A stretch of 64,000 nt of DNA from the sequence record LR877332; one strand, 5' to 3'. Source of the DNA: Shigella phage vB_SsoM_JK08. How positions within the stretch are numbered: the first letter of the stretch is position 1; the number at the start of each line of letters is the position of its first letter. The position numbers and the translations under genes were made by a program. Shown here piece after piece: positions 2,234-59,040 of the stretch. The notes beneath the pieces were generated by a model, which ran no database searches, was not told the DNA's origin, and saw only the letters and a list, made by a program, of their open reading frames with translations.

Positions 2234-3249
2234 TGTGTTGCCTCTACATATAACTGATTTGCATATTGAATAAGTGCTTCACGGTCAGAATCAGTGATGT
2301 CTGGAATTGCATTAATGTATTCTTCCATCAACGTCTGAAGAGATTGAACTTCAACCTCTTCGCTGTCATCTGACCCGACAGAGTTATCAATCTTTGACAC
2401 AACTCGTAATGAATGCACAACTTTTTCTAGTTCAGATTCGAACTTCGTCAGATTTTTGTCTACTTCAGTTACTATAACACGTACTGATAGATTTGTAAAA
2501 TCTTTATAGTCAATTTTTCCTTTAAATGGATAATGAATTCTACGATGCCAGGTAGTGTTGTTTGGAATAAATTCCATTCGTTCTGTTTCTGTATCAAACA
2601 TCCAGAACCCACGAGGGTCATTCTCGTCACCTGCTGTTAGTGTCCATGGTGTCCCAATATATCTGACGTTAGCAGCCTCAGAAATAGTATGGAAGTGACC
2701 AGACCACACTTCTTTATAAGTCTTAAGGAAATCAGGTTCAAGACCATGAGATTTCATTCCTTTATAAAAATAAAATCCATTCAGTTCCCAGTGACCGACG
2801 CAAAAAGAAGCAGATGAAGTTTTGATATGCTCAAGAATTTCACCAGTATTTTCTTCACACATCCAAGGAATTAAATCAATTAAACATCCGTCAAAATCTA
2901 CTGTAGTAGGCTTATCATATACTTTAACATTAGGATATTTAGCCAAAAGCTCAGTAGAGGCATTTGGATGCATTACATTTTTGTAGTGGAGATCGTGATT
3001 TCCTACAATAGTATGTAATGTGATTCCAGCGTCATCAAGCATTTGAACTATTTCACGGGCAAACTCCATAGTTTTATGCGTGATTGCTTTTCGCACATCA
3101 AAAATATCACCATATTGAATCCATACAGTAATTCCATTTTTCTTAGAATATTCTATCGCTTGCTTAATTCCATCAATTTGAATACCGCGAATCCACTCAT
3201 CATCAGCTTTAACGCCTAAATGCCAATCACCCAAGTTTAGTATTTTCAT
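2230..3249 (-). CDS. 47: recombination endonuclease subunit gp47 (Mre11/SbcD-like phosphoesterase)
   Basis: 339-aa ORF; N-terminal GDWHLG phosphoesterase motif, GNHD motif; adjacent to gp46. Confidence 0.92.
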   Translation of the reverse strand: MKILNLGDWHLGVKADDEWIRGIQIDGIKQAIEYSKKNGITVWIQYGDIFDVRKAITHKTMEFAREIVQMLDDAGITLHTIVGNHDLHYKNVMHPNASTELLAKYPNVKVYDKPTTVDFDGCLIDLIPWMCEENTGEILEHIKTSSASFCVGHWELNGFYFYKGMKSHGLEPDFLKTYKEVWSGHFHTISEAANVRYIGTPWTLTAGDENDPRGFWMFDTETERMEFIPNNTTWHRRIHYPFKGKIDYKDFTNLSVRVIVTEVDKNLTKFESELEKVVHSLRVVSKIDNSVGSDDSEEVEVQSLQTLMEEYINAIPDITDSDREALIQYANQLYVEATQ

Positions 3250-3850
3250 GGTGTCTTTTCCATCCTAATTTAGCTGCTTTTGAAACCAGTTCTTTAATTT
3301 TTCCTTTTGTCCATTCAGGACCAGGAGGTTCATGACATAACATTTGCTTAACTCCGTTATTATACCATTTTTTACCTTTATTATGTGATGAAGCTTTAAA
3401 TTTATTTGACCTTCCTTTTACATAACCTTCTGGAATATAAGGCAAAAAGGCAGATTTTCCTGTTAATGGATCATGTGAATGTATATTTCCTTTACAATTA
3501 TGAGAACCATATAATGGATGATTTTGTCCTTTATTATCTCTTCCAAACGAACCTTTTGGAGCAGCATATGACATATTAAAGAATAATGGATTTTTAACTG
3601 CATCATGCAATCGTTGATAATATAACTCGCATTTAATAGCTTCTTCACGCGTATCAAATTCAGCTAAAATGCATGAATCAAATAAGTGAGGATTATCTGA
3701 AAGCTCTTTATTATAAATTTTCTTATACTTTTTAGATAAAACTGAACCATGATATCCAGCTAAATGCCTATCTAAAGACGTAGATCCAATATAAAAAGGA
3801 GGAAGTTTATCTCCACTATATATTGTTAAATAAGTTATATATTTTTTCAT
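3227..3850 (-). CDS. GIY-YIG family endonuclease-like protein (putative free-standing homing endonuclease)
   Basis: 207-aa ORF; N-terminus YITYLTIYSGDKLPPFYIGSTSLDRHLAGYHG matches GIY-(10)-YIG spacing with downstream Arg/His and conserved Glu (TREEAIKCE); basic Gly/Lys-rich C-terminal half. Confidence 0.6.
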   Translation of the reverse strand: MKKYITYLTIYSGDKLPPFYIGSTSLDRHLAGYHGSVLSKKYKKIYNKELSDNPHLFDSCILAEFDTREEAIKCELYYQRLHDAVKNPLFFNMSYAAPKGSFGRDNKGQNHPLYGSHNCKGNIHSHDPLTGKSAFLPYIPEGYVKGRSNKFKASSHNKGKKWYNNGVKQMLCHEPPGPEWTKGKIKELVSKAAKLGWKRHHENTKLG

Positions 3851-13839: not shown

Positions 13840-14082
13840 TTATTCCTTAATTCCTAGTACTTGTTTAAAAGTCTCGTCGTAATCAAGACTTTGGCCCGTT
13901 TGTTCTTTATGTTTGTATATAATATCACTTACTTCTGATAGCATATTTTTATATGAACGAGTTAAAGCAGATTTAAGCACGCTGTATCTATCAGGAAATT
14001 TACCGTGTTCATTATAATAAGCTATTGCTAATTCACGGACTGCCTTTTCAGCAGCCTCCATATATTCTTTACGCTTGGTCAT
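13840..14082 (-). CDS. hypothetical protein
   Basis: 80-aa ORF. Confidence 0.5.
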
Positions 14083-14084
14083 TT

Positions 14085-14474
14085 TTAATCCAAAATATTA
14101 TTAGGCATTGGTTGAACACTCACAAGTTCTTTAAAGAACTCAGTAGAGTCAGGCAATTTAACCATTTCCGGAGCATGCTTACTGAATTTATGTTTACATT
14201 GACGGCATTTATATTCAAGCTCTGGTTTACGCCAGTTAATCAACTGAACTTGTTCAGTACCGCATTCAGGGCAATTAGGAACGTTTTTAGAAGCTCTTTC
14301 ACGTCGTTCAACCATAGCCATAATAGCATCCCATGCTGGAGGGTTAAAATCTAAATCGTCGCAGCCGTGAATCTTTCCACGCATTTCCATATCATCTTCC
14401 TCACCAGCCATAATAATTTTAATTAAACTGGAATTACTTGAAGCTGCAATGTCTTCTAATAAACGCTTTTTCAT
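14085..14474 (-). CDS. zinc-ribbon protein
   Basis: 129-aa ORF with CPECG...CRQC Cys pairs. Confidence 0.55.
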
Positions 14475-19426: not shown

Positions 19427-19453
19427 TTTTGTTCCTCCGTAGTTGATAGTTGT

Positions 19454-19482
19454 ATAGTACCACAGAGGAACAGTCTTGTAAA
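19454..19482 (-). promoter_or_regulatory. sigma70-type early promoter (-35 GTTTACA, -10 TGgTACTAT)
   Basis: RC of 19477-19482 = TTTACA, 17-nt spacer, RC of 19454-19459 = TACTAT. Confidence 0.5.
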
Positions 19483-19485
19483 CAA

Positions 19486-19891: not shown

Positions 19892-20872
19892 TTATTTCAG
19901 AAGAGTAACCGTAGCGATTTCTTCCCAACCGTTTTTGTCGGTCATAATGAAGTCAGCAAGATAAAGAGCAGTACGCAGTGAAACATTACGTAAACGGTTA
20001 ACATTGACTTTCATCCATGATAATGCTTTATAAGTTTCTTCATCAGAAAGACCGCGCTTTTGCATCATGTCGGTTGAAAGAATAACATCTTCAACCCTGA
20101 CCATAATTTCTTCATTAGTGTGAACACCCAAATCTAAATAAACTGAGCGGGACACTAATGCTTGTAAATGTGGAGCAAGTTTAGTACCACGGTCTAATTC
20201 GCGGTCAATATCAACGTTTGTGATAAAAACAATCGTTCCTTTAAATTCAAACTCACGCTCAATGCCTTTTTCTTCTAAGTAAGAAGATGCAGTGCTCCAG
20301 CAGACTTTACGGGTCTCTCCAGTGTCCAGAGCAGCTTTCAGAAGATTAAGAATGTCCATATCAGAGAAAACATCCACATCATCAATCAAAAGGACAGAAT
20401 TCTCTTCACGATTATTCCAGAGCTGCTCATAAAGACCGATACCTGAGATTTTACCATTAATGCTTTTATACTCAATGTATCCAATATCATTTGCTTTATT
20501 TAAAGCTTTATCTAAAGAATACGTTTTACCAATACCCGCCGCACCAGAGATAATTAATGAACGAATGTTTCCGTTAATAATACCATTCGTCATCATTCCC
20601 ATAACATTAAATCTTTTATTAATGCGGGTTTTCATATCTTCATATGATTCTTTAACTTCTTCAACTTTTACACCATCATATGAAATGTCTGATTTGTAAA
20701 CCCAAACACCGCGACGCTTACCGTCAATTTCAACAAAAACTTTACCATCTCCTTGTGCATCCACCGGAGCATTATCTGGGAACCATTCGCCTAAGAGCTC
20801 AAAAGTTCCAGAGATTTCTTTACCAAAGTAGATACCCTTATTGATAGTTACAGTTTTCATTTTATTCTCCAA
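19892..20872 (-). CDS. P-loop NTPase (AAA-like ATPase) with N-terminal extra domain
   Basis: 326-aa ORF; Walker A GAAGIGKT, Walker B VLLIDDVD, sensor-like FITN. Confidence 0.65.
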   Translation of the reverse strand: MENKMKTVTINKGIYFGKEISGTFELLGEWFPDNAPVDAQGDGKVFVEIDGKRRGVWVYKSDISYDGVKVEEVKESYEDMKTRINKRFNVMGMMTNGIINGNIRSLIISGAAGIGKTYSLDKALNKANDIGYIEYKSINGKISGIGLYEQLWNNREENSVLLIDDVDVFSDMDILNLLKAALDTGETRKVCWSTASSYLEEKGIEREFEFKGTIVFITNVDIDRELDRGTKLAPHLQALVSRSVYLDLGVHTNEEIMVRVEDVILSTDMMQKRGLSDEETYKALSWMKVNVNRLRNVSLRTALYLADFIMTDKNGWEEIATVTLLK

Positions 20873-20894
20873 ATCCGTATCAGTTGATAGTTGT

Positions 20895-20923
20895 ATAGTA
20901 CCATAAAGCTTTATGCTTGTAAA
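20895..20923 (-). promoter_or_regulatory. sigma70-type early promoter (-35 GTTTACA, -10 TGgTACTAT)
   Basis: RC of 20918-20923 = TTTACA, 17-nt spacer, RC of 20895-20900 = TACTAT; A-rich upstream element. Confidence 0.5.
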
Positions 20924-20945
20924 CCGTTTTGTGAAAAATTTTTGA

Positions 20946-24453: not shown

Positions 24454-24481
24454 GATGTTCTCCTCTTTATCCGATAGTTGT

Positions 24482-24511
24482 ATAGTATCACAGCTCAAAT
24501 GGAAAGTAAAC
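24482..24511 (-). promoter_or_regulatory. sigma70-type early promoter (-35 GTTTAC, -10 TGaTACTAT)
   Basis: RC of 24482-24487 = TACTAT; GTTTAC at RC of 24506-24511. Confidence 0.45.
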
Positions 24512-24520
24512 CGGTAAAAT

Positions 24521-34741: not shown

Positions 34742-34842
34742 AGTATTTCCTTAGGTTAATTGAGATTTAAAATCCGTAGGAGTATAATACTCTATCGTCA
34801 AATTATAGGCTCATAATATCTCAATCATGAGCCTGCGTAAAC

Positions 34843-35106
34843 TTATTTCATATTATTGAAATATTCTTCTGCGATTTCGTCGTTATCATGGTAAACTTTA
34901 GAAGACAGTTTAACATAACCTTCTGCTGTGAACATATTAATCACAACTTTTACAGTATACCACTGACCGTCTTCATTACCCATTACTGCGTAAGTTTCAA
35001 ACATCGGATGATCAGGACCGATAACTTTAATATCATTCACTGTACGACCGAAATCTTCTGAAACGCATTTCATAAAGAAGTTGAACAGTTCGCCGTAATT
35101 ATCCAT
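34843..35106 (-). CDS. hypothetical protein (88 aa; start refined downstream of promoter)
   Basis: ORF-track 34843..35226; early promoter -10 at 35150 lies inside the long ORF; ATG 35106 has a GGAG RBS. Confidence 0.45.
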   Translation of the reverse strand: MDNYGELFNFFMKCVSEDFGRTVNDIKVIGPDHPMFETYAVMGNEDGQWYTVKVVINMFTAEGYVKLSSKVYHDNDEIAEEYFNNMK

Positions 35107-35149
35107 TTCATTCTCCAAGTTGTTTTCTGTATCAGTAGTTGATAGTTGT

Positions 35150-35178
35150 ATAGTACCATGGAAGAACAGAGATGTAAA
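35150..35178 (-). promoter_or_regulatory. sigma70-type early promoter (-35 GTTTACA, -10 TGgTACTAT)
   Basis: RC of 35173-35178 = TTTACA, 17-nt spacer, RC of 35150-35155 = TACTAT; A-rich UP element. Confidence 0.5.
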
Positions 35179-35302
35179 CAGTTTTGTGAAAAAATTTTTA
35201 GGGAATTCTAGGGCAGGGATGGGCAATTAAAGGATAGGATAATATATTATAAAGGGTATAAACTAAATGATGCCTAGAGAGGTCCAGAAAGGCCTAGATA
35301 CC

Positions 35303-35327
35303 AAAAAGCCCTATCATTTAGATAGGG
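35303..35327 (-). terminator. intrinsic terminator
   Basis: ccctatc-attta-gataggg hairpin with A-run 35303-35307 (U-run on minus). Confidence 0.5.
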
Positions 35328-35335
35328 ATTTAAAA

Positions 35336-35899
35336 TTATTTACCTAGTTTACTTATTATAGCTTCTGCAGCAGCTTTTAGCTTAGATGCAGTGTTAATAC
35401 GATTTTTAATTTCAGTATACGCATCGCCAAGAACATCAAGGCTATCAGAATAAACACTTACACTATTGCGTTCGCTATTTGAAATAGAACCTTTAGTTTT
35501 GCGGTCAAAATCGGTGTACACGTCTTGAAGATCGCGGGCTGCCTTCTTTGCATCATCCAATGCATCAAGAGCTTTATTCAAAGCATTAACGTATTTTTTA
35601 GTGTCGAACATATTCTTAGAAATTTTAACAGGTGCGCGTTCAGGAGTAGCTAACACAGATTTAGGAACCTGAGCGCCAGATGCCAATTTCTTAGAAATTT
35701 TGAAAAATGCTTTATTGAATTTATTTTCTTGACTCATTGTAAAAGAACTATTATCGATGTTGTACATTTCAATAGCTTTAGCTTTCCACTTAAGAAAATC
35801 GCCGCGGTCTTTTGGGTCCAATTGGAAGAATACTTTAGTAAGATCTGCTTCAGATGGTAATTTTGCTGCTTCGGTTAAAAATTCGGCATAGGTTTTCAT
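35336..35899 (-). CDS. internal-protein-like protein with capsid-targeting N-terminus
   Basis: 187-aa ORF; N-terminus MKTYAEFLTE resembles the T4 internal-protein targeting sequence MKTYQEFIAE with an LxE protease-site motif. Confidence 0.55.
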   Translation of the reverse strand: MKTYAEFLTEAAKLPSEADLTKVFFQLDPKDRGDFLKWKAKAIEMYNIDNSSFTMSQENKFNKAFFKISKKLASGAQVPKSVLATPERAPVKISKNMFDTKKYVNALNKALDALDDAKKAARDLQDVYTDFDRKTKGSISNSERNSVSVYSDSLDVLGDAYTEIKNRINTASKLKAAAEAIISKLGK

Positions 35900-35989
35900 T
35901 TAAAATCCTTGAAATAATTTATCGGTTGGTTATTAATTATTTATTACTTTGTTACTATCCGTAACAGCGTTATCCGAGTGATTCAAACT

Positions 35990-38687: not shown

Positions 38688-38716
38688 TTTATTCTCCTCA
38701 GTAGTAGATAGGGTAA

Positions 38717-38744
38717 TAGTATCACTACCCTATCTAAAAGTAAA
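38717..38744 (-). promoter_or_regulatory. early promoter inside stem-loop cassette (PeSL-like)
   Basis: -10 TGaTACTAT (RC of 38717-38725) embedded in inverted repeat gataggg...ccctatc; -35 TTTACT. Confidence 0.5.
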
Positions 38745-38745
38745 C

Positions 38746-38991
38746 TTATTTTTTACGAAAAATTGATTTATTTTCTGCTGCCCATTTTTCAATAACTGCA
38801 GCAGGACCAGTAACAACAATTTTATCACCGTAATCTTCTGCGGCGAGTTGACCGAAATTATCTAATGCATCACGAAGAACTCCATGAGGCATTTCACCCA
38901 TTTTATCTTTCTTGCCAGTGTAAATAAACTCAACTTTTACATCAGCAGTTTCAGCAATAAATTCTTGGTAAGTTTTCATTTTGATTTCCAT
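38746..38991 (-). CDS. internal-protein-like protein (capsid-targeting sequence MKTYQEFIAE)
   Basis: 81-aa ORF; residues 5-14 MKTYQEFIAE match the T4 internal-protein targeting sequence; true start may be the second ATG (38979). Confidence 0.6.
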   Translation of the reverse strand: MEIKMKTYQEFIAETADVKVEFIYTGKKDKMGEMPHGVLRDALDNFGQLAAEDYGDKIVVTGPAAVIEKWAAENKSIFRKK

Positions 38992-39014
38992 TTGGTTTTG
39001 TTTTGATAGGGTAA

Positions 39015-39042
39015 TAGTATCACAACTAAAACCCTATGTAAA
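39015..39042 (-). promoter_or_regulatory. early promoter inside stem-loop cassette (PeSL-like)
   Basis: gtaatagtatcac -10 region flanked by tagggt/accctat; -35 GTTTACA; shared downstream block gtaaacaactttgtgaaattattttaa. Confidence 0.5.
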
Positions 39043-39055
39043 CAACTTTGTGAAA

Positions 39056-39313
39056 TTATTTTAAATCTTCTAATCGTTTCTTCATCTTAGAACCATTTTT
39101 AGCAATTTCTCCTGCATCGGAGCATAATGCTAAAAGTGCTTTAACTTTAGTTTGGTCTCCTTTAAAAGATGAAGGATCGACCGCAGCAGCAAGTTCTTTA
39201 ATACGAGAGAAAAGACGCTCAGCTTCAGCTAAAGCCATTCCAAGCTTTACTTCCATACCGTGGGAAGATTCGGTGATAGTAGTTTTTGTAGCAAACTCTT
39301 TGAAAGTTTTCAT
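39056..39313 (-). CDS. internal-protein-like protein (N-terminus MKTFKEFATK)
   Basis: 85-aa ORF with targeting-sequence-like N-terminus and ITE motif. Confidence 0.5.
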   Translation of the reverse strand: MKTFKEFATKTTITESSHGMEVKLGMALAEAERLFSRIKELAAAVDPSSFKGDQTKVKALLALCSDAGEIAKNGSKMKKRLEDLK

Positions 39314-39344
39314 TTTTATTTTCCTAATTAATTTTGATGAGGTA

Positions 39345-39372
39345 ATAGTATCACTACCTCATCAGTATGTAA
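39345..39372 (-). promoter_or_regulatory. early promoter inside stem-loop cassette (PeSL-like)
   Basis: gatgaggta-atagtatcac-tacctcatc inverted repeat around -10; -35 GTTTACA; near-identical to the cassette at 39001-39060. Confidence 0.5.
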
Positions 39373-39386
39373 ACAACTTTGTGAAA

Positions 39387-40071
<685 letters not shown>

Positions 40072-42807: not shown

Positions 42808-43398
42808 ATGCTCTTTACATTTTTTGATCCGATTGAATATGCGGCCAAAACGGTGAATAAAAACGCGCCGACTATTCCTATGACAGATATTTTTAGAAAC
42901 TATAAAGACTATTTTAAACGCGCTCTTGCGGGATACCGCTTACGTACTTATTATATCAAAGGTTCACCACGCCCGGAAGAATTAGCAAATACTATATATG
43001 GAAATCCACAGTTGTATTGGGTTTTATTGATGTGTAATGATAATTATGACCCGTATTATGGATGGATTACTTCACAAGAAGCAGCTTATCAAGCATCTAT
43101 ACAAAAATACAAAAATGTAGGTGGAGACCAAATAGTATATCATGTGAATGAGAACGGTGAAAAATTTTATAATTTAATATCATACGATGATAATCCATAT
43201 GTTTGGTATGATAAAGGTGATAAAGCTAGAAAATATCCTCAATATGAAGGAGCACTTGCTGCTGTTAATACGTATGAAGATGCTGTTCTTGAAAATGAAA
43301 AACTTCGTCAAATAAAAATAATAGCAAAATCAGACATTAATTCATTTATGAACGACCTTATACGTATAATGGAGAAATCTTATGGAAATGATAAGTAA
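42808..43398 (+). CDS. 53: baseplate wedge protein gp53
   Basis: 196-aa ORF, position before gene 5. Confidence 0.8.
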   Translation: MLFTFFDPIEYAAKTVNKNAPTIPMTDIFRNYKDYFKRALAGYRLRTYYIKGSPRPEELANTIYGNPQLYWVLLMCNDNYDPYYGWITSQEAAYQASIQKYKNVGGDQIVYHVNENGEKFYNLISYDDNPYVWYDKGDKARKYPQYEGALAAVNTYEDAVLENEKLRQIKIIAKSDINSFMNDLIRIMEKSYGNDK

Positions 43399-45109
43399 TA
43401 ACCTTAATTGGTTTGTTGGTGTTGTTGAAGATAGAATGGACCCATTAAAATTAGGTCGTGTTCGTGTTCGTGTGGTTGGTCTGCATCCACCTCAAAGAGC
43501 ACAAGGCGATGTAATGGGTATTCCAACTGAAAAATTACCATGGATGTCAGTTATTCAACCTATAACTTCTGCAGCAATGTCTGGAATTGGAGGTTCTGTT
43601 ACTGGACCGGTAGAAGGAACTAGAGTTTATGGTCATTTTTTAGACAAATGGAAAACTAACGGAATTGTCCTTGGCACGTATGGTGGAATAGTTCGCGAAA
43701 AACCGAATAGACTTGAAGGATTTTCTGACCCAACTGGGCAATATCCTAGACGTTTAGGAAATGATACTAATGTATTAAACCAAGGCGGAGAAGTAGGATA
43801 TGATTCGTCTTCTAACATTATCCAAGATAGTAACTTAGACACTGCAATAAATCCCGATGATAGACCACTATCAGAGATTCCAACCGATGATAATCCAAAT
43901 ATGTCAATGGCTGACATGCTTCGCCGTGATGAAGGATTAAGACTAAAAGTTTATTGGGATACTGAAGGATATCCGACAATTGGTATTGGTCATCTTATCA
44001 TGAAGCAGCCAGTTCGTGATATGGCTCAAATTAATAAAGTTTTATCAAAACAAGTTGGTCGTGAAATTACTGGAAACCCAGGTTCTATTACGATGGAAGA
44101 GGCGACGACTTTATTTGAACGTGATTTGGCTGATATGCAACGGGACATTAAATCACATTCTAAAGTAGGACCAGTCTGGCAAGCTGTCAACCGTTCTCGT
44201 CAAATGGCGTTAGAAAATATGGCATTTCAAATGGGTGTTGGCGGTGTAGCTAAATTTAACACAATGTTAACTGCTATGTTAGCCGGAGATTGGGAAAAAG
44301 CATATAAAGCCGGTCGTGATTCATTGTGGTATCAACAAACAAAAGGCCGTGCATCCCGTGTTACCATGATTATTCTTACGGGGAATTTGGAATCATATGG
44401 TGTTGAAGTGAAAACCCCAGCTAGGTCTCTATCAGCAATGGCTGCTACTGTAGCTAAATCTTCTGACCCGGCTGACCCTCCTATTCCAAATGACTCGAGA
44501 ATTTTATTCAAAGAACCAGTTTCTTCATATAAAGGTGAATATCCTTATGTGCATACAATGGAAACTGAAAGCGGACATATTCAGGAATTTGATGATACTC
44601 CTGGGCAAGAACGATACAGATTAGTTCATCCGACTGGAACTTATGAAGAAGTATCACCGTCAGGAAGAAGAACAAGAAAAACTGTCGATAATTTGTATGA
44701 TATAACCAACGCTGATGGTAATTTTTTGGTAGCCGGTGATAAAAAGACTAACGTCGGTGGATCAGAAATTTATTACAACATGGATAATCGTCTTCACCAA
44801 ATAGATGGAAGCAATACAATATTTGTACGTGGCGATGAAACTAAGACAGTTGAAGGCAATGGAACTATCCTAGTTAAAGGTAATGTTACTATTGTAGTTG
44901 AAGGTAATGCTGACATTACAGTTAAAGGAGATGCTACCACTTTAGTTGAAGGAAATCAAACTAACACAGTAAATGGAAATCTTTCTTGGAAAGTTGCTGG
45001 GACAGTTGATTGGGACGTTGGTGGTGATTGGACAGAAAAAATGGCATCTATGAGTTCTATTTCATCTGGTCAATACACAATTGATGGATCGAGGATTGAC
45101 ATTGGCTAA
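43382..45109 (+). CDS. 5: baseplate hub/tail lysozyme gp5
   Basis: 575-aa ORF; lysozyme domain DEGLRLKVYWDTEGYPTIGIGHL parallels e; C-terminal VxGxxxxx beta-helix repeats. Confidence 0.93.
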   Translation: MEMISNNLNWFVGVVEDRMDPLKLGRVRVRVVGLHPPQRAQGDVMGIPTEKLPWMSVIQPITSAAMSGIGGSVTGPVEGTRVYGHFLDKWKTNGIVLGTYGGIVREKPNRLEGFSDPTGQYPRRLGNDTNVLNQGGEVGYDSSSNIIQDSNLDTAINPDDRPLSEIPTDDNPNMSMADMLRRDEGLRLKVYWDTEGYPTIGIGHLIMKQPVRDMAQINKVLSKQVGREITGNPGSITMEEATTLFERDLADMQRDIKSHSKVGPVWQAVNRSRQMALENMAFQMGVGGVAKFNTMLTAMLAGDWEKAYKAGRDSLWYQQTKGRASRVTMIILTGNLESYGVEVKTPARSLSAMAATVAKSSDPADPPIPNDSRILFKEPVSSYKGEYPYVHTMETESGHIQEFDDTPGQERYRLVHPTGTYEEVSPSGRRTRKTVDNLYDITNADGNFLVAGDKKTNVGGSEIYYNMDNRLHQIDGSNTIFVRGDETKTVEGNGTILVKGNVTIVVEGNADITVKGDATTLVEGNQTNTVNGNLSWKVAGTVDWDVGGDWTEKMASMSSISSGQYTIDGSRIDIG

Positions 45110-51018: not shown

Positions 51019-52015
51019 TTCAAGTGTTATCTATCGTGCGATAGTTACTTCAAAATTTAGAACAGAAAAAATGTTGAATTTTTATAATTCAATTGGAAGT
51101 GGTCCGGATAAAAACACTATCTTTATCACATTTGGAAGATCAGAACCGTGGTCATCAAATGAAAATGAGGTGGGCTTTGCCCCACCTTATCCAACCGATT
51201 CTGTATTAGGCGTAACTGACATGTGGACGCATATGATGGGAACAGTAAAGGTTCTTCCATCAATGCTTGACGCAGTTATTCCTCGTCGAGATTGGGGAGA
51301 TACTAGATATCCGGATCCATACACATTTAGAATTAACGATATTGTAGTGTGTAACTCAGCTCCTTACAACGCTACTGAATCAGGCGCAGGCTGGTTAGTA
51401 TATCGTTGTTTAGATGTTCCTGATACTGGAATGTGTTCAATCGCATCTTTAACTGATAAGGATGAATGCCTTAAATTAGGCGGAAAATGGACACCTTCTG
51501 TTAGGTCAATGACTCCTCCTGAAGGTCGAGGAGATGCTGAAGGAACAATTGAACCTGGGGACGGGTATGTATGGGAATATCTTTTTGAGATTCCACCCGA
51601 TGTATCTATAAATAGATGCACGAATGAATATATTGTGGTTCCTTGGCCTGAGGAATTAAAAGAAGACCCGACTAGATGGGGATATGAAGATAATCTCACT
51701 TGGCAGCAAGATGATTTTGGATTAATTTACCGGGTTAAGGCAAATACTATCCGTTTTAAAGCATATTTAGATTCAGTTTACTTTCCTGATGCTGCATTGC
51801 CAGGAAATAAAGGATTTAGACAAATATCAATAATCACAAATCCTCTTGAAGCTAAAGCTCATCCAAATGACCCAAATGTTAAAGCTGAAAAGGATTATTA
51901 TGATCCAGAAGATTTAATGAGGCATTCGGGCGAAATGATTTATATGGAAAATAGGCCACCTATTATCATGGCAATGGATCAGACAGAAGAAATCAATATT
52001 CTGTTTACATTTTAA
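51011..52015 (+). CDS. 8: baseplate wedge protein gp8
   Basis: 334-aa ORF. Confidence 0.9.
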   Translation: MNDSSVIYRAIVTSKFRTEKMLNFYNSIGSGPDKNTIFITFGRSEPWSSNENEVGFAPPYPTDSVLGVTDMWTHMMGTVKVLPSMLDAVIPRRDWGDTRYPDPYTFRINDIVVCNSAPYNATESGAGWLVYRCLDVPDTGMCSIASLTDKDECLKLGGKWTPSVRSMTPPEGRGDAEGTIEPGDGYVWEYLFEIPPDVSINRCTNEYIVVPWPEELKEDPTRWGYEDNLTWQQDDFGLIYRVKANTIRFKAYLDSVYFPDAALPGNKGFRQISIITNPLEAKAHPNDPNVKAEKDYYDPEDLMRHSGEMIYMENRPPIIMAMDQTEEINILFTF

Positions 52016-52078: not shown

Positions 52079-52945
52079 ATGTTCATTCAAGAACCAAAGA
52101 AATTGATTGATACCGGCGAAATTGGTAACGCTTCTACTGGTGATATCTTATTCGACGGTGGTAATAAAATTAATAGTGATTTTAACGCAATTTATAATGC
52201 GTTTGGCGATCAGCGTAAAATGGCAGTAGCAAATGGCACTGGAGCAGATGGTCAAATTATCCATGCTACTGGATATTATCAAAAGCACTCTATCGCGGAG
52301 TACGCAACTCCAGTGAAAGTTGGCACTAGACATGATATTGATACCTCTACTGTAGGTGTTAAAGTTATTATTGAAAGAGGAGAACTTGGCGATTGTGTTG
52401 AATTCATTAACTCTAATGGATCAATATCAGTTACTAATCCTTTAACGATTCAGGCTATTGATTCAATTAAAGGCGTTTCAGGTAATTTAGTAGTAACTAG
52501 CCCATATAGTAAAGTAACTTTACGCTGTATTTCATCTGATAATTCTACATCGGTTTGGAATTATTCTATTGAAAGTATGTTTGGACAAAAGGAATCACCA
52601 GCTGAAGGTACATGGAATATTTCTACATCCGGATCAGTTGATATTCCACTATTTCATCGCACTGAATACAATATGGCTAAATTGCTAGTTACGTGCCAAT
52701 CAGTAGATGGAAGAAAAATTAAAACAGCAGAAATAAATATTCTTGTGGATACTGTTAATTCAGAAGTTATTTCTTCTGAGTATGCTGTCATGAGAGTTGG
52801 AAATGAAACAGAAGAAGACGAGATTGCTAATATTGCATTTAGTATTAAAACCAACTATGTAACGGCGACTATAAGTTCTTCTACCGTTGGCATGAGAGCA
52901 GCAGTTAAAGTTATCGCTACGCAGAAAATCGGGGTGGCTCAATAA
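52079..52945 (+). CDS. 9: baseplate wedge/long tail fibre socket gp9
   Basis: 288-aa ORF. Confidence 0.9.
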   Translation: MFIQEPKKLIDTGEIGNASTGDILFDGGNKINSDFNAIYNAFGDQRKMAVANGTGADGQIIHATGYYQKHSIAEYATPVKVGTRHDIDTSTVGVKVIIERGELGDCVEFINSNGSISVTNPLTIQAIDSIKGVSGNLVVTSPYSKVTLRCISSDNSTSVWNYSIESMFGQKESPAEGTWNISTSGSVDIPLFHRTEYNMAKLLVTCQSVDGRKIKTAEINILVDTVNSEVISSEYAVMRVGNETEEDEIANIAFSIKTNYVTATISSSTVGMRAAVKVIATQKIGVAQ

Positions 52946-54750
52946 TGAAACAAAATATTAATATCGGTAATGTTGTTGATGATGGTACCGGTGACTACCT
53001 GCGTAAAGGTGGTATAAAAATAAATGAAAACTTTGATGAACTTTATTATGAACTTGGCGATGGAGATGTTCCATATTCAGCCGGTGCCTGGAAAACTTAT
53101 AATGCTTCATCTGGTCAAACATTAAAAGCTAAGTGGGGAAAATCATACGCTATTAATACCTCTTCTGGAAGAGTAACTTTACAACTTCCTAAAGGAACTG
53201 TTAATGATTATAATAAAGTAATTAGAGCTAGGGATGTATTTGCAACATGGAACATTAATCCAGTTACTTTAGTAGCTGCTTCTGGAGATACAATTAAAGG
53301 GTCGTCATCATCGGTTGAAATTAATACTCAATTTAGTGATTTAGAGCTCGTTTATTGCGCTCCAGGACGTTGGGAGTATGTCAAAAACAAACAAATTGAC
53401 AAAATTATTAGTTCAGATATTAGTAATGTAGCACGTAAAGAATTTTTAGTCGAAGTTCAAGGACAAACGGACTTTTTAGATGTTTTCCGCGGAACTAGCT
53501 ATAATGTTAATAACATCCGAGTAAAACACCGTGGTAATGAATTATATTACGGCGATGTATTTAGTGAAAACAGTGACTTTGGCTCTCCTGGGGAAAATGA
53601 AGGAGAATTGATTCCTCTTGATGGATTTAATATTAGGTTAAGACAGCCTTGTAATATTGGTGACACTGTTCAAATTGAAACATTTATGGATGGTATATCA
53701 CAATGGAGAAGTTCATATACAAGACGCCAAATAAAAGTATTAGATTCAAAATTAACGTCAAAAACTTCTTTAGAAGGAAGTATTTACGTTACTGATTTAT
53801 CAACAATGAAATCAATTCCATTCTCTGCATTTGGATTAATTCCTGGAGAACCTATTAATCCTAATTCTCTTGAAGTTCGTTTTAATGGAATTTTACAACA
53901 ACAAGCTGGAACAGCAGGATATCCTCTGTTTTTGTGTGAAGGTGCTAACTCAGATACGCAAGCAGGATGTATATCTCTTGGTGGTGAATGGAAAGAATCG
54001 AACACAGATTATTCTATAGAATATGAAGATGGAAAACCTGTCAGTCTTTTATTTGATAGAAAATTTGAATCAGGTGATATAATCGTTATAACATGGTTTA
54101 ATAATGATTTAGGAACTCTTTTAGAAAAAGATGACATTATTGAATTAACTGATGACCGTTATGTTAGTAAAGGATCATCTACTGAAGTTACTGGGGATGT
54201 AGCCTTAACAGATTTTGATAAAATCGGTTGGCCAAATGTTGAAAAAGTTGATTCTTATACTAGAACGTATAATTCAATATCATCTATTTTCGATAGCATT
54301 TATCCCGTAGGTTCAATTTATGAAAATGCTATAAACCCAAATAATCCGGTGACTTATATGGGGTTTGGTTCGTGGAAATTATTTGGTAAAGGACAAGTTT
54401 TAGTAGGATGGAATGATGATGTTACGGATCCAAACTTTGCTTTAAACAATAATGATTTAGATTCTAGCGGAAATCCTTCACATACTGCCGGTGGAACAGT
54501 TGGAACAACATCGGTGACACTTGAGAACGCAAATCTTCCTGCGACTAAAACTGATGAAAAAGTTTTAATTGAAGATGAAAACGGATCAGTTATTATTGGA
54601 GGTTGTCAATATGACCCAGACGAAACTGGTCCTATATATACAAAATATCGTGAAGACTACGCAACAACAAACTCTTCACATACTCCTCCTACTAATATTA
54701 GTAATATTCAACCGTCTATTACTGTATACCGTTGGATAAGGATTGCATAA
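52945..54750 (+). CDS. 10: baseplate wedge protein gp10
   Basis: 601-aa ORF. Confidence 0.9.
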
Positions 54751-55409
54751 TGAGTTTACTTAATAATAAAGCGGGAGTTATTTCCCGCTTAGCAGATTTT
54801 CTTGGTTTTAGAACTAAGAAAAATGATATTTCGGTTATGAATAATCAGCCAGTAGGCGCTGTAACAATTTCACAAATAGCAAAAGGTTTTTATGACCCGA
54901 ATGTAGAATCTGCTATCAATGATGTTAGAAATATGGCAGAGCAACCGGTTGGAGCTGTATTAGTTAATATAAGCGGCGTATCTCCTACTGGCGTGCAACA
55001 AACCGACTATTGGTCATTTGAAGGAACTGTTACTGATACTTCAGTCAAATCAGGTGACCCAGTTATTGTTAACATGTTTGGTATTCCAGTTAAAGCTACT
55101 AATGGAATGACTTCAATTGAATTTACTAGTGCCGTTAGAATAGCTCTACAGGAAATGGTTGTAAAATTTATTGCAATTGATTCATTTGAAGACCATCCTA
55201 CCATAGGAAATAAAATACAAGTTAAGTATTTAGATAACCAAGAACATATCTTAGAACAATACTCTGATAAAGGAATTACTTTCAAACAGGAAATAATTTC
55301 TCCTTCTAAACCTGGGTATGGAACTTGGCAATTATTAGGTGCGCAAACTGTTACGCTAGATAGTCACACACAACCTACAGTATTTTATTATTTTGAGAGA
55401 ATAGCATGA
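54750..55409 (+). CDS. 11: baseplate wedge/short tail fibre connector gp11
   Basis: ATG 54750 overlaps the gp10 stop; 219 aa ([20 protein letters not shown]...) matching recalled T4 gp11; ORF-track version starts 18 nt upstream. Confidence 0.88.
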
Positions 55410-55512
55410 GTAACAATACATATCAGCACGTATCAAATGAATCAAAATATGTTAAATTCGATCCTACTGGATCGAATTTTCCTGGCACTGTTACGACAGT
55501 ACAGTCTGCATT
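54896..55512. repeat. tandem duplication copy 1 (617 bp: gene 11 codon 50 to end plus first 35.7 codons of gene 12)
   Basis: 100% identical to 55513-56129 by direct comparison. Confidence 0.9.
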
Positions 55513-56026
55513 CCCGAATGTAGAATCTGCTATCAATGATGTTAGAAATATGGCAGAGCAACCGGTTGGAGCTGTATTAGTTAATATAAGCGGCGTATCT
55601 CCTACTGGCGTGCAACAAACCGACTATTGGTCATTTGAAGGAACTGTTACTGATACTTCAGTCAAATCAGGTGACCCAGTTATTGTTAACATGTTTGGTA
55701 TTCCAGTTAAAGCTACTAATGGAATGACTTCAATTGAATTTACTAGTGCCGTTAGAATAGCTCTACAGGAAATGGTTGTAAAATTTATTGCAATTGATTC
55801 ATTTGAAGACCATCCTACCATAGGAAATAAAATACAAGTTAAGTATTTAGATAACCAAGAACATATCTTAGAACAATACTCTGATAAAGGAATTACTTTC
55901 AAACAGGAAATAATTTCTCCTTCTAAACCTGGGTATGGAACTTGGCAATTATTAGGTGCGCAAACTGTTACGCTAGATAGTCACACACAACCTACAGTAT
56001 TTTATTATTTTGAGAGAATAGCATGA
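55406..56026 (+). CDS. chimeric ORF: gp12 residues 1-35 fused in frame to gp11 residues 50-219
   Basis: 206-aa ORF; N-terminus identical to gp12 ([35 protein letters not shown]), remainder identical to the gp11 C-terminus; created by the tandem duplication. Confidence 0.6.
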
Positions 56027-56129
56027 GTAACAATACATATCAGCACGTATCAAATGAATCAAAATATGTTAAATTCGATCCTACTGGATCGAATTTTCCT
56101 GGCACTGTTACGACAGTACAGTCTGCATT
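55513..56129. repeat. tandem duplication copy 2
   Basis: 100% identical to 54896-55512. Confidence 0.9.
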
Positions 56130-57573
56130 ATCAAAAATAAGTAATATCGGCGTAAATGGTATTCCTGATGCAACTATGGAAGTTAAAGGAATAGCAATGA
56201 TTGCATCAGAGCAAGAGGTTTTAGATGGAACAAATAATTCTAAAATCGTTACACCAGCTACATTAGCAACAAGATTATTGTATCCAAATGCTACTGAAAC
56301 TAAATATGGTTTAACGCGCTATTCAACAAATGAAGAAACATTAGAAGGCTCAGATAATAATTCATCAATAACGCCGCAAAAACTGAAATACCATACTGAT
56401 GATGTGTTCCGAAATAGATATTCATCTGAGTCATCAAACGGGGTTATTAAAATATCATCTACGCCTGCGGCTTTGGCTGGTGTTGATGATACTACGGCGA
56501 TGACTCCGCTAAAAACCCAAAAACTCGCAATAAAATTAATTTCACAAATAGCTCCTTCCGAAGATACTGCATCAGAATCTGTGAGAGGTGTGGTTCAATT
56601 ATCAACTGTTGCGCAAACTCGTCAAGGAACTCTCCGCGAAGGATATGCAATTTCTCCGTATACCTTTATGAATTCTGTTGCAACACAAGAATATAAGGGT
56701 GTTATACGTTTAGGAACACAATCGGAAATTAACAGTAATTTAGGAGATGTTGCAGTAACAGGTGAAACACTAAATGGTCGAGGAGCTACTGGTTCTATGC
56801 GTGGAGTAGTTAAATTAACGACGCAAGCCGGTATTGCCCCTGAAGGTGATAGTTCTGGAGCATTAGCGTGGAACGCAGATGTAATTAATACGCGTGGTGG
56901 ACAAACTATTAATGGTTCTTTAAATTTAGACCATCTTACAGCAAATGGAATTTGGTCACGCGGTGGAATGTGGAAAAATGGCGATCAACCTGTTGCCACT
57001 GAAAGATATGCGTCCGAACGAGTTCCGGTTGGAACTATTATGATGTTTGCGGGTGATTCAGCACCTCCAGGTTGGATTATGTGTCATGGTGGAACCGTGT
57101 CAGGTGACCAATTTCCTGATTATAGAAACGTAGTTGGAACAAGATTTGGTGGCGATTGGAATAATCCTGGCGTTCCTGATATGCGGGGTCTTTTCGTCAG
57201 AGGAGCTGGCACAGGCGGTCATATTTTAAATCAACGAGGACAAGATGGTTATGGAAAGGATAGACTTGGCGTAGGATGTGACGGAATGCATGTTGGTGGT
57301 GTTCAAGCACAACAAATGTCATACCATAAACACGCCGGTGGTTGGGGGGAACATAACAGAAGTGAAGGCCCATTTGGCGCGTCTGTTTATCAAGGATATC
57401 TTGGAACTAGAAAATATGCCGACTGGGATAATGCTTCATACTTCACTAATGATGGATTTGAATTAGGCGGACCGAGAGATGCCCTTGGTACACTTAATCG
57501 TGAAGGATTAATTGGTTATGAAACTAGACCATGGAATATATCATTAAACTATATTATTAAAGTTCATTACTAA
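56023..57573 (+). CDS. 12: short tail fibre protein gp12
   Basis: 516-aa ORF matching recalled T4 gp12 ([20 protein letters not shown]...[13 protein letters not shown]). Confidence 0.9.
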
Positions 57574-57582
57574 GGATTACAA

Positions 57583-59040
57583 ATGATTGAATTAAAAGAT
57601 TTACCTTTTGTTGATAGCGTTCCTGATGAAGGTCAGGAACGTATTTCATGGATTAAAAATGGTGAAGAAATACTAGGAGCTAGCACTAAGTATGGAAACG
57701 ATGGATCAATGAATAGACCAATTGTTTCCGTGTTTAAAAATGTTGAGGTTCTTGACGAAAATATAGGAATTCTTAAAACTGCCATTGAAACATCGCAGAA
57801 AGATATTAAAACAATTCAAGGAGTTTTAGATGTATCAGGAGATATAGAAGCACTATCGCAGATCAGTGTTAATAAAAATGACATATCAAATTTAAAGACA
57901 CTTACTAATGAACACACTGATATATTAACTGGAACTAATAATACAGTTGACAAAATTATTGCTGATATAGGTCCATTTAATGATGAAGAAAACTCTGTTT
58001 ATAGAACAATTAGAAATGATTTATTGTGGATTAAACAAGAACTAGGGCAATATTCTGGCCAAGACATTAACGGTCTTCCTGTTGTTGGTAATGCTAGCAC
58101 AGGAATGAAACATAGAATAATAACAAATAGTACATTATTATCTTCACAAGGCATTCGTTTAAGTGAATTAGAAAATAAATTTACTGAATCTGACGTAGGA
58201 TCATTGACGGTTGAAGTTGGTAAATTACGCGATGAACTTGGTAATAAACCAGTAGATTTTGGACCAAATATTTATAATAGATTAAACACTATAGATGATA
58301 AACAAACTTTAATAAATTCTGATATAGCAGAAATTAAATCTTCTATTGGATACCCAGAAAATGTTTCTATAATAACAGAAATTAATAATAACAAAAGTAG
58401 CATTGAATCTATTAATAATGAATTAAATCAGAGTGAAGGTGTTAAACAGCGCTTAACGGCTATTGAAACTTCTATAGGTTCAGATGATATTCCTTCTAGT
58501 ATTAAAGGAAAAATTAAAAATCACACAACTTCTATTGAGTCTTTAAACGGAATTGTTGGTGAAAACACTTCGTCTGGTTTAAGAGCGAATGTTTCGTGGT
58601 TAAATCAAATTGTTGGAACTGACTCCAGCGGAGGACAACCGTCTCCTTCTGGATCTCTATTAAATAAAGTTTCAGTGCTTGAAGGAGAAGTTTCAGTTTT
58701 AAACAATAATGTTCAAAATATACAAGTTGAAATAGGAAATAATAGAACAGGAATTAAAGGTCAAGTTATTGAACTTACTTCACTTATAAATGGAAATAAT
58801 CCTGACGGATCAACTGTTGAAGAACGAGGATTAACTAATTCTATAAAAACGAATGAAACTAACATTGCGGCAGTCACGCATGAAGTAAATACAGCTAAAG
58901 ACAATATATCCTCTTTACAGAGCAGCGTTCAAGCTCTACAAGAAGCAGGTTATATTCCTGAAGCTCCAAAAGATGGCCAAGCTTACGTTCGTAAAGACGG
59001 CGAATGGGTACTACTTTCTACCTTTTTATCACCAGCATAA
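57583..59040 (+). CDS. wac: fibritin (whisker antigen control)
   Basis: 485-aa ORF, coiled-coil segments and C-terminal foldon [27 protein letters not shown]. Confidence 0.92.

Follow-up and report, generated by a model that had tools for sequence, protein, structure and literature searches.

The window analysed here is a stretch of 64,000 nucleotides from the genome of Shigella phage vB_SsoM_JK08 (sequence record LR877332), and it contains genes 10, 11, 12 and wac. JK08 is a Tequatrovirus whose best relatives are approximately 99.3-99.4% identical to it across 20-24 kb (fFiEco06, MG781190). At the boundary between genes 11 and 12 a unit of 617 nucleotides occurs twice in direct succession, and an additional ORF is found between the two genes. 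The features of this array and its surroundings are as follows.

52945-54750, plus strand: gene 10 (gp10, 601 aa; baseplate wedge/tail pin protein), upstream of the array and unaffected
54750-55409, plus strand: gene 11, intact (gp11, 219 aa); Pfam PF08677 GP11 over residues 1-219, E 2.8e-75
54896-55512, no strand: copy 1 of the unit, from gene 11 codon 49 (third base) to gene 12 codon 36 (second base); identical to copy 2
55007-55285 and 55624-55902, minus strand: a pair of identical 92-aa ORFs from the ORF list
55406-56026, plus strand: chimeric ORF of 206 aa, consisting of gp12 residues 1-35, Phe36 and gp11 residues 50-219
55454-55479, plus strand, with a copy at 56071-56096: hairpin with a perfect 11-bp stem and a 4-nt loop, AAATTCGATCC-TACT-GGATCGAATTT
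55501-55526, plus strand: novel junction, ACAGTCTGCATT followed by CCCGAATGTAGAAT, with the joint between 55512 and 55513; unique in the window. Reads of duplicated JK08 DNA would contain the junction-spanning string ACAGTCTGCATTCCCGAATGTAGAAT
55513-56129, no strand: copy 2 of the unit, extra DNA relative to every relative; identical to copy 1
56023-57573, plus strand: gene 12, intact (short tail fibre gp12, 516 aa); Pfam PF09089, PF07484 and PF14928
57583-59040: wac, from the ORF list

In the copy-versus-copy comparison the two copies were the same in 617 of 617 nucleotides, with 0 mismatches and no spacer, and the perfect tandem repeat described in the first-pass annotation is upheld. The absence of obvious microhomology at the joint was likewise borne out, as identity continued 0 bases past either end of the copies and the boundaries are exact. 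A joint without homology is expected approximately 53-56% of the time with random breakpoints. The unit had been described as running from codon 50 of gene 11 to codon 36 of gene 12; its end is retained, at the second base of codon 36, while its start is corrected to the third base of codon 49. Both breakpoints fall in mid-gene, within these two codons, and are unrelated to the gene boundaries. The length of the unit is not a multiple of three (617 mod 3 = 2), and the fusion keeps its frame solely through the offset of 2 that gene 12 has against gene 11. The array is internal, at least 7.8 kb from both ends of the window. The 617-nt pair was the sole exact direct repeat of at least 40 nt in the 64-kb window, and none of that length was present across approximately 542 kb of related loci; a chance origin of the repeat is therefore excluded.

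Repeats of other kinds were also observed in the window. Two families of intergenic direct repeats of 58-71 nt were located at 19427-19484, 20868-20925, 24455-24512 and 35123-35180, and also at 38703-39402. They contain GATAGTTGTATAGTACCA followed further on by GTAAACA, their minus strand resembles T4-type early promoters (GTTTAC ... TAtAcT), and they stand upstream of leftward early genes. Gene 5 (43382-45109) holds a tandem repeat with a 24/48-nt period at 44848-44980, and this period fits the 8-residue repeat in the C-terminal beta-helix needle of gp5.

The two parental genes are complete, with the final 514 nt of gene 11 lying within copy 1 and the initial 107 nt of gene 12 within copy 2. 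The ORF list gives gene 11 as 225 aa from a TTG at 54732, whereas the true gp11 is 219 aa long and starts from the ATG at 54750. The exact gp10 protein was present in many relatives, with gp11 (219 aa) and gp12 (516 aa) coming after it in every case; the exact gp11 protein was also found in phages PYps55T and UTI-E4, and the exact gp12 protein in Isf-Pm2 and one Logan contig. The identical 92-aa minus-strand ORFs lie where the first-pass annotation had placed them. Their counterpart was absent from annotated relatives, and they are simply duplicated noise ORFs. The 225- and 206-aa ORFs do share a C-terminus as had been claimed, but this is 171 residues long only if the stop is counted, and otherwise 170.

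No late promoter (TATAAATA) was found inside the 617-nt unit, the nearest plus-strand sites being at 51607 and 52047, and sigma-70-like and terminator-like matches in the unit were in no excess over background. A regulatory rationale for the duplication was consequently dropped, as the unit has no late promoter and its other signals are at background level. The hairpin with the 11-bp stem lies in the opening 25 codons of gene 12, where it encodes KFDPTGSNF, 33 nt ahead of the joint. Judged by position, it may be the element annotated as a 'terminator' in fPS-65 and fPS-90, where the annotation falls inside the stretches that match the query. The joint itself (55497-55520) can fold into an 8-bp hairpin, TCTGCATT-CCCG-AATGTAGA, with one G-T pair. 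This was rejected as a cause of the duplication, since it would favour an inverted and not a direct rearrangement; it is probably there by chance.

The chimeric protein

The order of an intact gp11, an in-frame fusion of the gp12 N-terminus to the gp11 body with a Phe at the joint, and an intact gp12, as read in the first-pass annotation, agreed with the ORFs. The Phe is specified by a new codon, TTC, in which TT precedes the joint and C follows it. The chimera matched Pfam PF08677 GP11 with an E-value of 2.2e-55 (188 bits) at profile positions 58-252 of 252, so that the N-terminal fifth of the profile is missing from it, and it aligned to T4 gp11 (PDB 1el6) across residues 37-219. Its residues 1-35 are identical to the gp12 of the window and align to residues 1-35+ of T4 gp12 (5iv5_O; E 1.4e-11). 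None of the gp12 middle, collar and receptor-binding domains was detected in the chimera by Pfam. The gp11 residues 1-49, which are absent from it, are presumably most of the N-terminal trimeric helix in the 1EL6 structure.

Among approximately 15 billion proteins the chimera matched CAD2272783.1 of Shigella phage vB_SsoM_JK08 with 100% identity and 100% coverage; this protein is annotated 'baseplate wedge subunit and tail pin' in the 169,207 bp JK08 record. The number of other proteins spanning the fusion was 0, and the protein cluster of the chimera has one member from one contig. The next-best matches after CAD2272783.1 were ordinary gp11 proteins of 219 aa.

Both gp11 and gp12 are trimers present in 18 copies per virion (Leiman et al. 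2010, PMC3004832; PMC8825819). The gp12 N-terminus docks coaxially on a gp10 domain and the gp11 fingers clamp a gp10 domain, gp10 taking both partners as trimers (PMC3004832; PMC8825819). With the finger and head domains of gp11 and the docking segment of gp12, but without gp11 residues 1-49, the chimera could either form joint trimers with gp11 or act as a competitor for gp10. It carries the initiation region of gene 12 itself, GAGAG...ATGA overlapping the gene 11 stop, and its synthesis, from the late transcript running from gene 9 to wac, would therefore be about as strong as that of gp12. If the duplication is real, a cost of the fusion is more plausible than a benefit. The weight given earlier to competition of the fusion in baseplate and short-tail-fibre assembly is not supported by its occurrence in a single record and absence from 321 relatives, the lack of homology at the junction and the use of the MIRA assembler.

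Occurrence in relatives and lineage mosaic

The unit was single in all 321 phage records that carry it (321 places), and all 320 records covering a 2,501-nt probe spanned 1,884 nt, that is 2,501 - 617. None of the 321 records was identical to the unit; the best had 1 mismatch, and the single copy of the relatives differed by 1-15 mismatches. A megablast search of 50,697 phage records with a 100-nt junction probe never gave a contiguous match, only half-matches 617 nt apart. An exact scan with the junction 26-mer yielded 0 matches in IMG/VR, JGI metagenome and GTDB genome contigs, and the E. coli genome and plasmid collections gave no match whatever. Thirty relatives were gathered through exact lookups of gp10, gp11, gp12, wac and gp7 in NCBI, ENA metagenome scaffolds and Logan read-set assemblies, and 30/30 displayed the single-copy arrangement gp10 (601)-gp11 (219)-gp12 (516 or 518)-wac (485). 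No Logan contig derived from the JK08 reads was encountered in these lookups or in that of the chimera. The comparison with related phages proposed in the first-pass annotation consequently went against the duplication, the junction being absent from the 321 relatives, the 30 fetched loci and the three contig collections. In these sequence searches the duplication is confined to one deposited record, that of JK08.

With copy 2 removed, 12 relatives aligned collinearly to 20.4 kb of the window with 0-1 gaps, and 83 of the 84 shared ORFs of at least 80 aa were equal in length to those of fFiEco06. On account of this collinearity and the conserved ORF lengths the rest of the window is regarded as clean. 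Three differences from fFiEco06 (MG781190) were observed: approximately 595 nt extra between genes 47 and a-gt (window 3249-3844), approximately 494 nt of fFiEco06 missing near nrdC.10/DUF4031 (window 20872-20884) and approximately 1.2 kb of divergent sequence near e.8 (window 34792-35987). They are typical of ordinary accessory-gene variation in T4-like phages. A deletion compensating for the additional 617 bp was considered among them and discarded, since these differences are ordinary variation and +617 bp needs no compensation.

The cassette from gene 12 to wac is Isf-Pm2-like, with 1 mismatch in 2,911 nt, and both of its flanks are fFiEco06/EC101-like. The Isf-Pm2-like stretch extends over window 55313-58400, where 58400 is given with copy 2 removed and corresponds to about 59000 in window coordinates. 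The left lineage switch falls in the interval 55313-55401, which belongs to the 3' end of gene 11 and to the unit and is 110-200 nt from the joint. It looks like an ordinary exchange of a fibre-gene cassette among T4-like phages. The same internal switch was present in copy 1 and copy 2, and the copies therefore stem from one template that was already recombinant; neither of them has changed since the duplication. Lineage switches recur every 1-5 kb along the window, and the nearness of this one to the joint is for that reason probably a coincidence. A tie between the duplication and the switch within the unit was accordingly rejected, as both copies share the mosaic and switches are frequent.

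Origin of the second copy

JK08 was sequenced by MiSeq 2x250 from a PCR-free library and 'assembled with MIRA v4.0.2' (PMC8044893); the duplication goes unmentioned in that paper, as does any step of re-orientation or contig joining. PCR chimeras are excluded because of the PCR-free library. The sample is ERS3957427 in project PRJEB34549. MIRA is an overlap-layout-consensus assembler which does not circularise, and on a circularly permuted genome it gives redundant contig ends of about read-to-template length, or, at very high coverage, several overlapping contigs. Direct terminal repeats are used by CheckV as a signal of circularity. A literature search on the end-overlap behaviour of MIRA turned up nothing. 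Guidelines for phage genomics, in the Phage Annotation Guide, warn that contigs may surpass 100% of the genome length and that redundancies can sit internally (PMC8785237).

The first-pass annotation had offered a very recent duplication or an assembly artefact, which is the right pair of options, and the evidence now favours the artefact. It is likely that copy 2 is not in the phage and represents an untrimmed contig overlap made internal by re-orientation or contig joining. The reads of a circularly permuted T4-type genome would tile a circle, and an overlap-layout assembler such as MIRA would render it as a linear contig repeating one stretch at both ends, of approximately one read or read-pair template; alternatively, the assembler would yield more than one contig, the ends of which overlap. 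If the linear contig were cut and re-joined for a conventional start, or the several contigs concatenated, with the overlap untrimmed, a perfect head-to-tail duplication would result. Its breakpoints would be arbitrary and possibly in mid-gene, and a gene caller would then list the read-through ORF as an extra 'gp11-like' protein. Two steps in this account are inferred: that trimming of the overlap was omitted, and that re-orientation or joining of the contig took place. The JK08 record itself displays perfect identity of the copies, arbitrary breakpoints free of homology and otherwise clean collinear sequence, it is the single record to do so, and the assembler is the one described. Like the redundant or 'over-length' contig ends of the guidelines (PMC8785237), the JK08 repeat is a perfect direct repeat with arbitrary homology-free bounds and a length on the scale of a read or template, found in one record from a non-circularising assembler; unlike them it is internal and tandem and does not lie at the two ends of the record.

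Tandem duplications in T4 differ from it in several respects. Duplications and amplifications of rII, genes 16-18 and dmd-tifA and those of CRISPR escape are reported to form at homologies of 2-10 bp (Srikant et al. 2022, PMC9391042). Packaging in T4 is by the headful, with a terminal redundancy of roughly 3.3 kb (PMC9391042), and the earlier statement that tandem duplications are known in T4-type genomes and tolerated within the headful limit agrees with that study. The JK08 array resembles these cases as a head-to-tail repeat in the range of a few hundred to a few thousand bp, tolerated by headful packaging and leaving the essential flanking genes intact. The T4 cases, however, involve short homologies and selection and often compensating deletions, whereas in JK08 there is no homology, no evident gain and no independent confirmation. 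Duplications of rII and the Hp17 amplifications of genes 16-18 were reportedly described in T4 by Kumagai et al. in 1993 and Wu et al. in 1991, respectively, and host-range duplications within the tail-fibre adhesin gene 37 of T4 are said to have been found by Tetart et al. in 1996. The latter are alike in being in frame and in affecting structural genes for the tail or its fibres in a T-even phage, but they concern a domain within one protein and alter receptor recognition, while the JK08 array fuses two proteins and leaves the parents unchanged. A literature search on gene 11/12 duplications and on the instability of T4 duplications found nothing specific.

A second case was detected in Escherichia phage a15 (OQ067373.1), in which the 3' end of gene 8 carries 103 nt twice in perfect tandem (14019-14121 and 14122-14224 in coordinates of the fetched locus). 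It has no microhomology, makes a stray ORF of a 29-aa gp8 fragment, displaces gene 9 by 103 nt and was absent from the other relatives examined. Like the JK08 repeat it is a perfect tandem copy lacking microhomology, and it too is found among the baseplate genes of a T4-like genome that has been deposited; it differs in its length and location and in creating only the small gp8 fragment. It could be real or an artefact, and in either case perfect homology-free tandem duplications therefore recur in the records.

That the duplication arose in assembly is argued by copies that are 100% identical to each other yet at least 1 nt from all 321 relatives, which points to a common template, and by the 0 nt of junction homology against the 2-10 bp of real T4 duplications (PMC9391042). 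It is unique to JK08 among the phage records, the contig collections and the approximately 15 billion proteins, MIRA was applied to a circularly permuted genome, 617 nt approximates one paired-end template, and a second perfect tandem repeat without homology is known from phage a15. Stable upkeep is also unlikely for a fusion that has 170 residues in common with the trimeric gp11 and is made from the gene 12 initiation region. Since the duplication is internal, an artefact nevertheless requires an additional, undocumented step of re-orientation or joining. The surrounding assembly is clean, with 83/84 ORFs of at least 80 aa equal in length to those of fFiEco06, and an in-frame fusion, with a prior of 1 in 3, is mildly more expected from a viable real event. 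T4 could also accommodate +617 bp within its terminal redundancy of approximately 3.3 kb (PMC9391042). Illegitimate recombination mediated by topoisomerase and free of homology, which is known in T4, is likewise to be weighed against an artefact. We hold an artefact to be clearly more likely than a biological origin.

A genuine, very recent and recombinationally unstable tandem duplication in the sequenced JK08 stock is possible but unlikely. Illegitimate recombination, unequal sister or concatemer exchange, or template switching would then have brought codon 36 of gene 12 up against codon 49 of gene 11, with genes 11 and 12 left intact and the 206-aa protein, neutral or mildly harmful, made on the late transcript from gene 9 to wac. 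The repeat is after all present in the deposited sequence, within a clean surrounding assembly and from a PCR-free library that excludes PCR chimeras; the reading frame continues through the fusion, and neither essential gene is lost. In T4, tandem amplifications arise readily and are tolerated up to the headful limit (PMC9391042). The additional 617 bp are 0.37% of the genome (record of 169,207 bp) and pose no obstacle to packaging because they are well inside the terminal redundancy of approximately 3.3 kb (PMC9391042). The 11-bp hairpin 33 nt ahead of the right breakpoint could perhaps stall replication. These points are set against a junction without the 2-10 bp of homology typical of T4, undiverged copies, and the absence of the duplication from all other isolates, metagenomes and read-set assemblies. 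The unit offers no late promoter and no other evident gain, and the fusion holds the whole gp11 body and could form mixed gp11 trimers, which predicts a cost and not a benefit. The assembler used is prone to redundant ends. A perfect repeat of 617 nt is a substrate for the very active homologous recombination of T4, and by that route the copy would be lost unless a recent plaque bottleneck had fixed it.

It is very improbable that JK08 physically carries the duplication and produces a fusion protein which enters the baseplate periphery or disturbs it. Even less probable is a genuine duplication that is selectively maintained with the gp12N::gp11C fusion as a functional new baseplate component, which might, for example, occupy the gp12 site on gp10 or alter the deployment of the short tail fibres or adsorption. 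The reading frame and the retention of the gp10-binding N-terminal segment of gp12 together with the gp11 finger and head domains would permit such a role. Against it, the fusion is known from one record only and no relative has such an architecture; the zero divergence indicates no evolutionary persistence, and the lost gp11 residues 1-49 presumably take most of the trimeric helix with them. The least probable reading is a mis-join of contigs from two mixed T4-like phages, in which the lineage switch would be an assembly chimera and the duplication a contig overlap. The change from fFiEco06-like to Isf-Pm2-like sequence at 55313-55401 does lie inside the unit, but both copies have the same mosaic, and copy 2 is without the 11 Isf-Pm2-type variants expected of a pure Isf-Pm2-like contig. 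Switches recur every 1-5 kb in the window, furthermore, and exchange of the gene 12-wac cassette is ordinary in T4-like phages.

Meaning for the JK08 genome

If the duplication is an artefact, the JK08 record of 169,207 bp is 617 bp too long and includes a spurious CDS, CAD2272783.1, and a spurious 'baseplate wedge subunit and tail pin' has already spread into nr and the protein clusters. JK08 belongs to a proposed therapeutic cocktail, and an accurate genome matters for this reason. The value of the finding is probably mainly one of curation, namely that the genome of a candidate therapeutic phage probably contains an error of 617 bp and, with it, a spurious CDS. Perfect tandem repeats without homology in circularly permuted phage genomes are to be held suspect until the reads have been checked. 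A real duplication would add one modest case to the tandem duplications that T4 is known to be prone to form, and it would be of interest only should the fusion protein prove functional. A fusion that was both made and incorporated would be a natural chimeric baseplate protein, changing the docking of the short tail fibres or adsorption and caught just after its birth.
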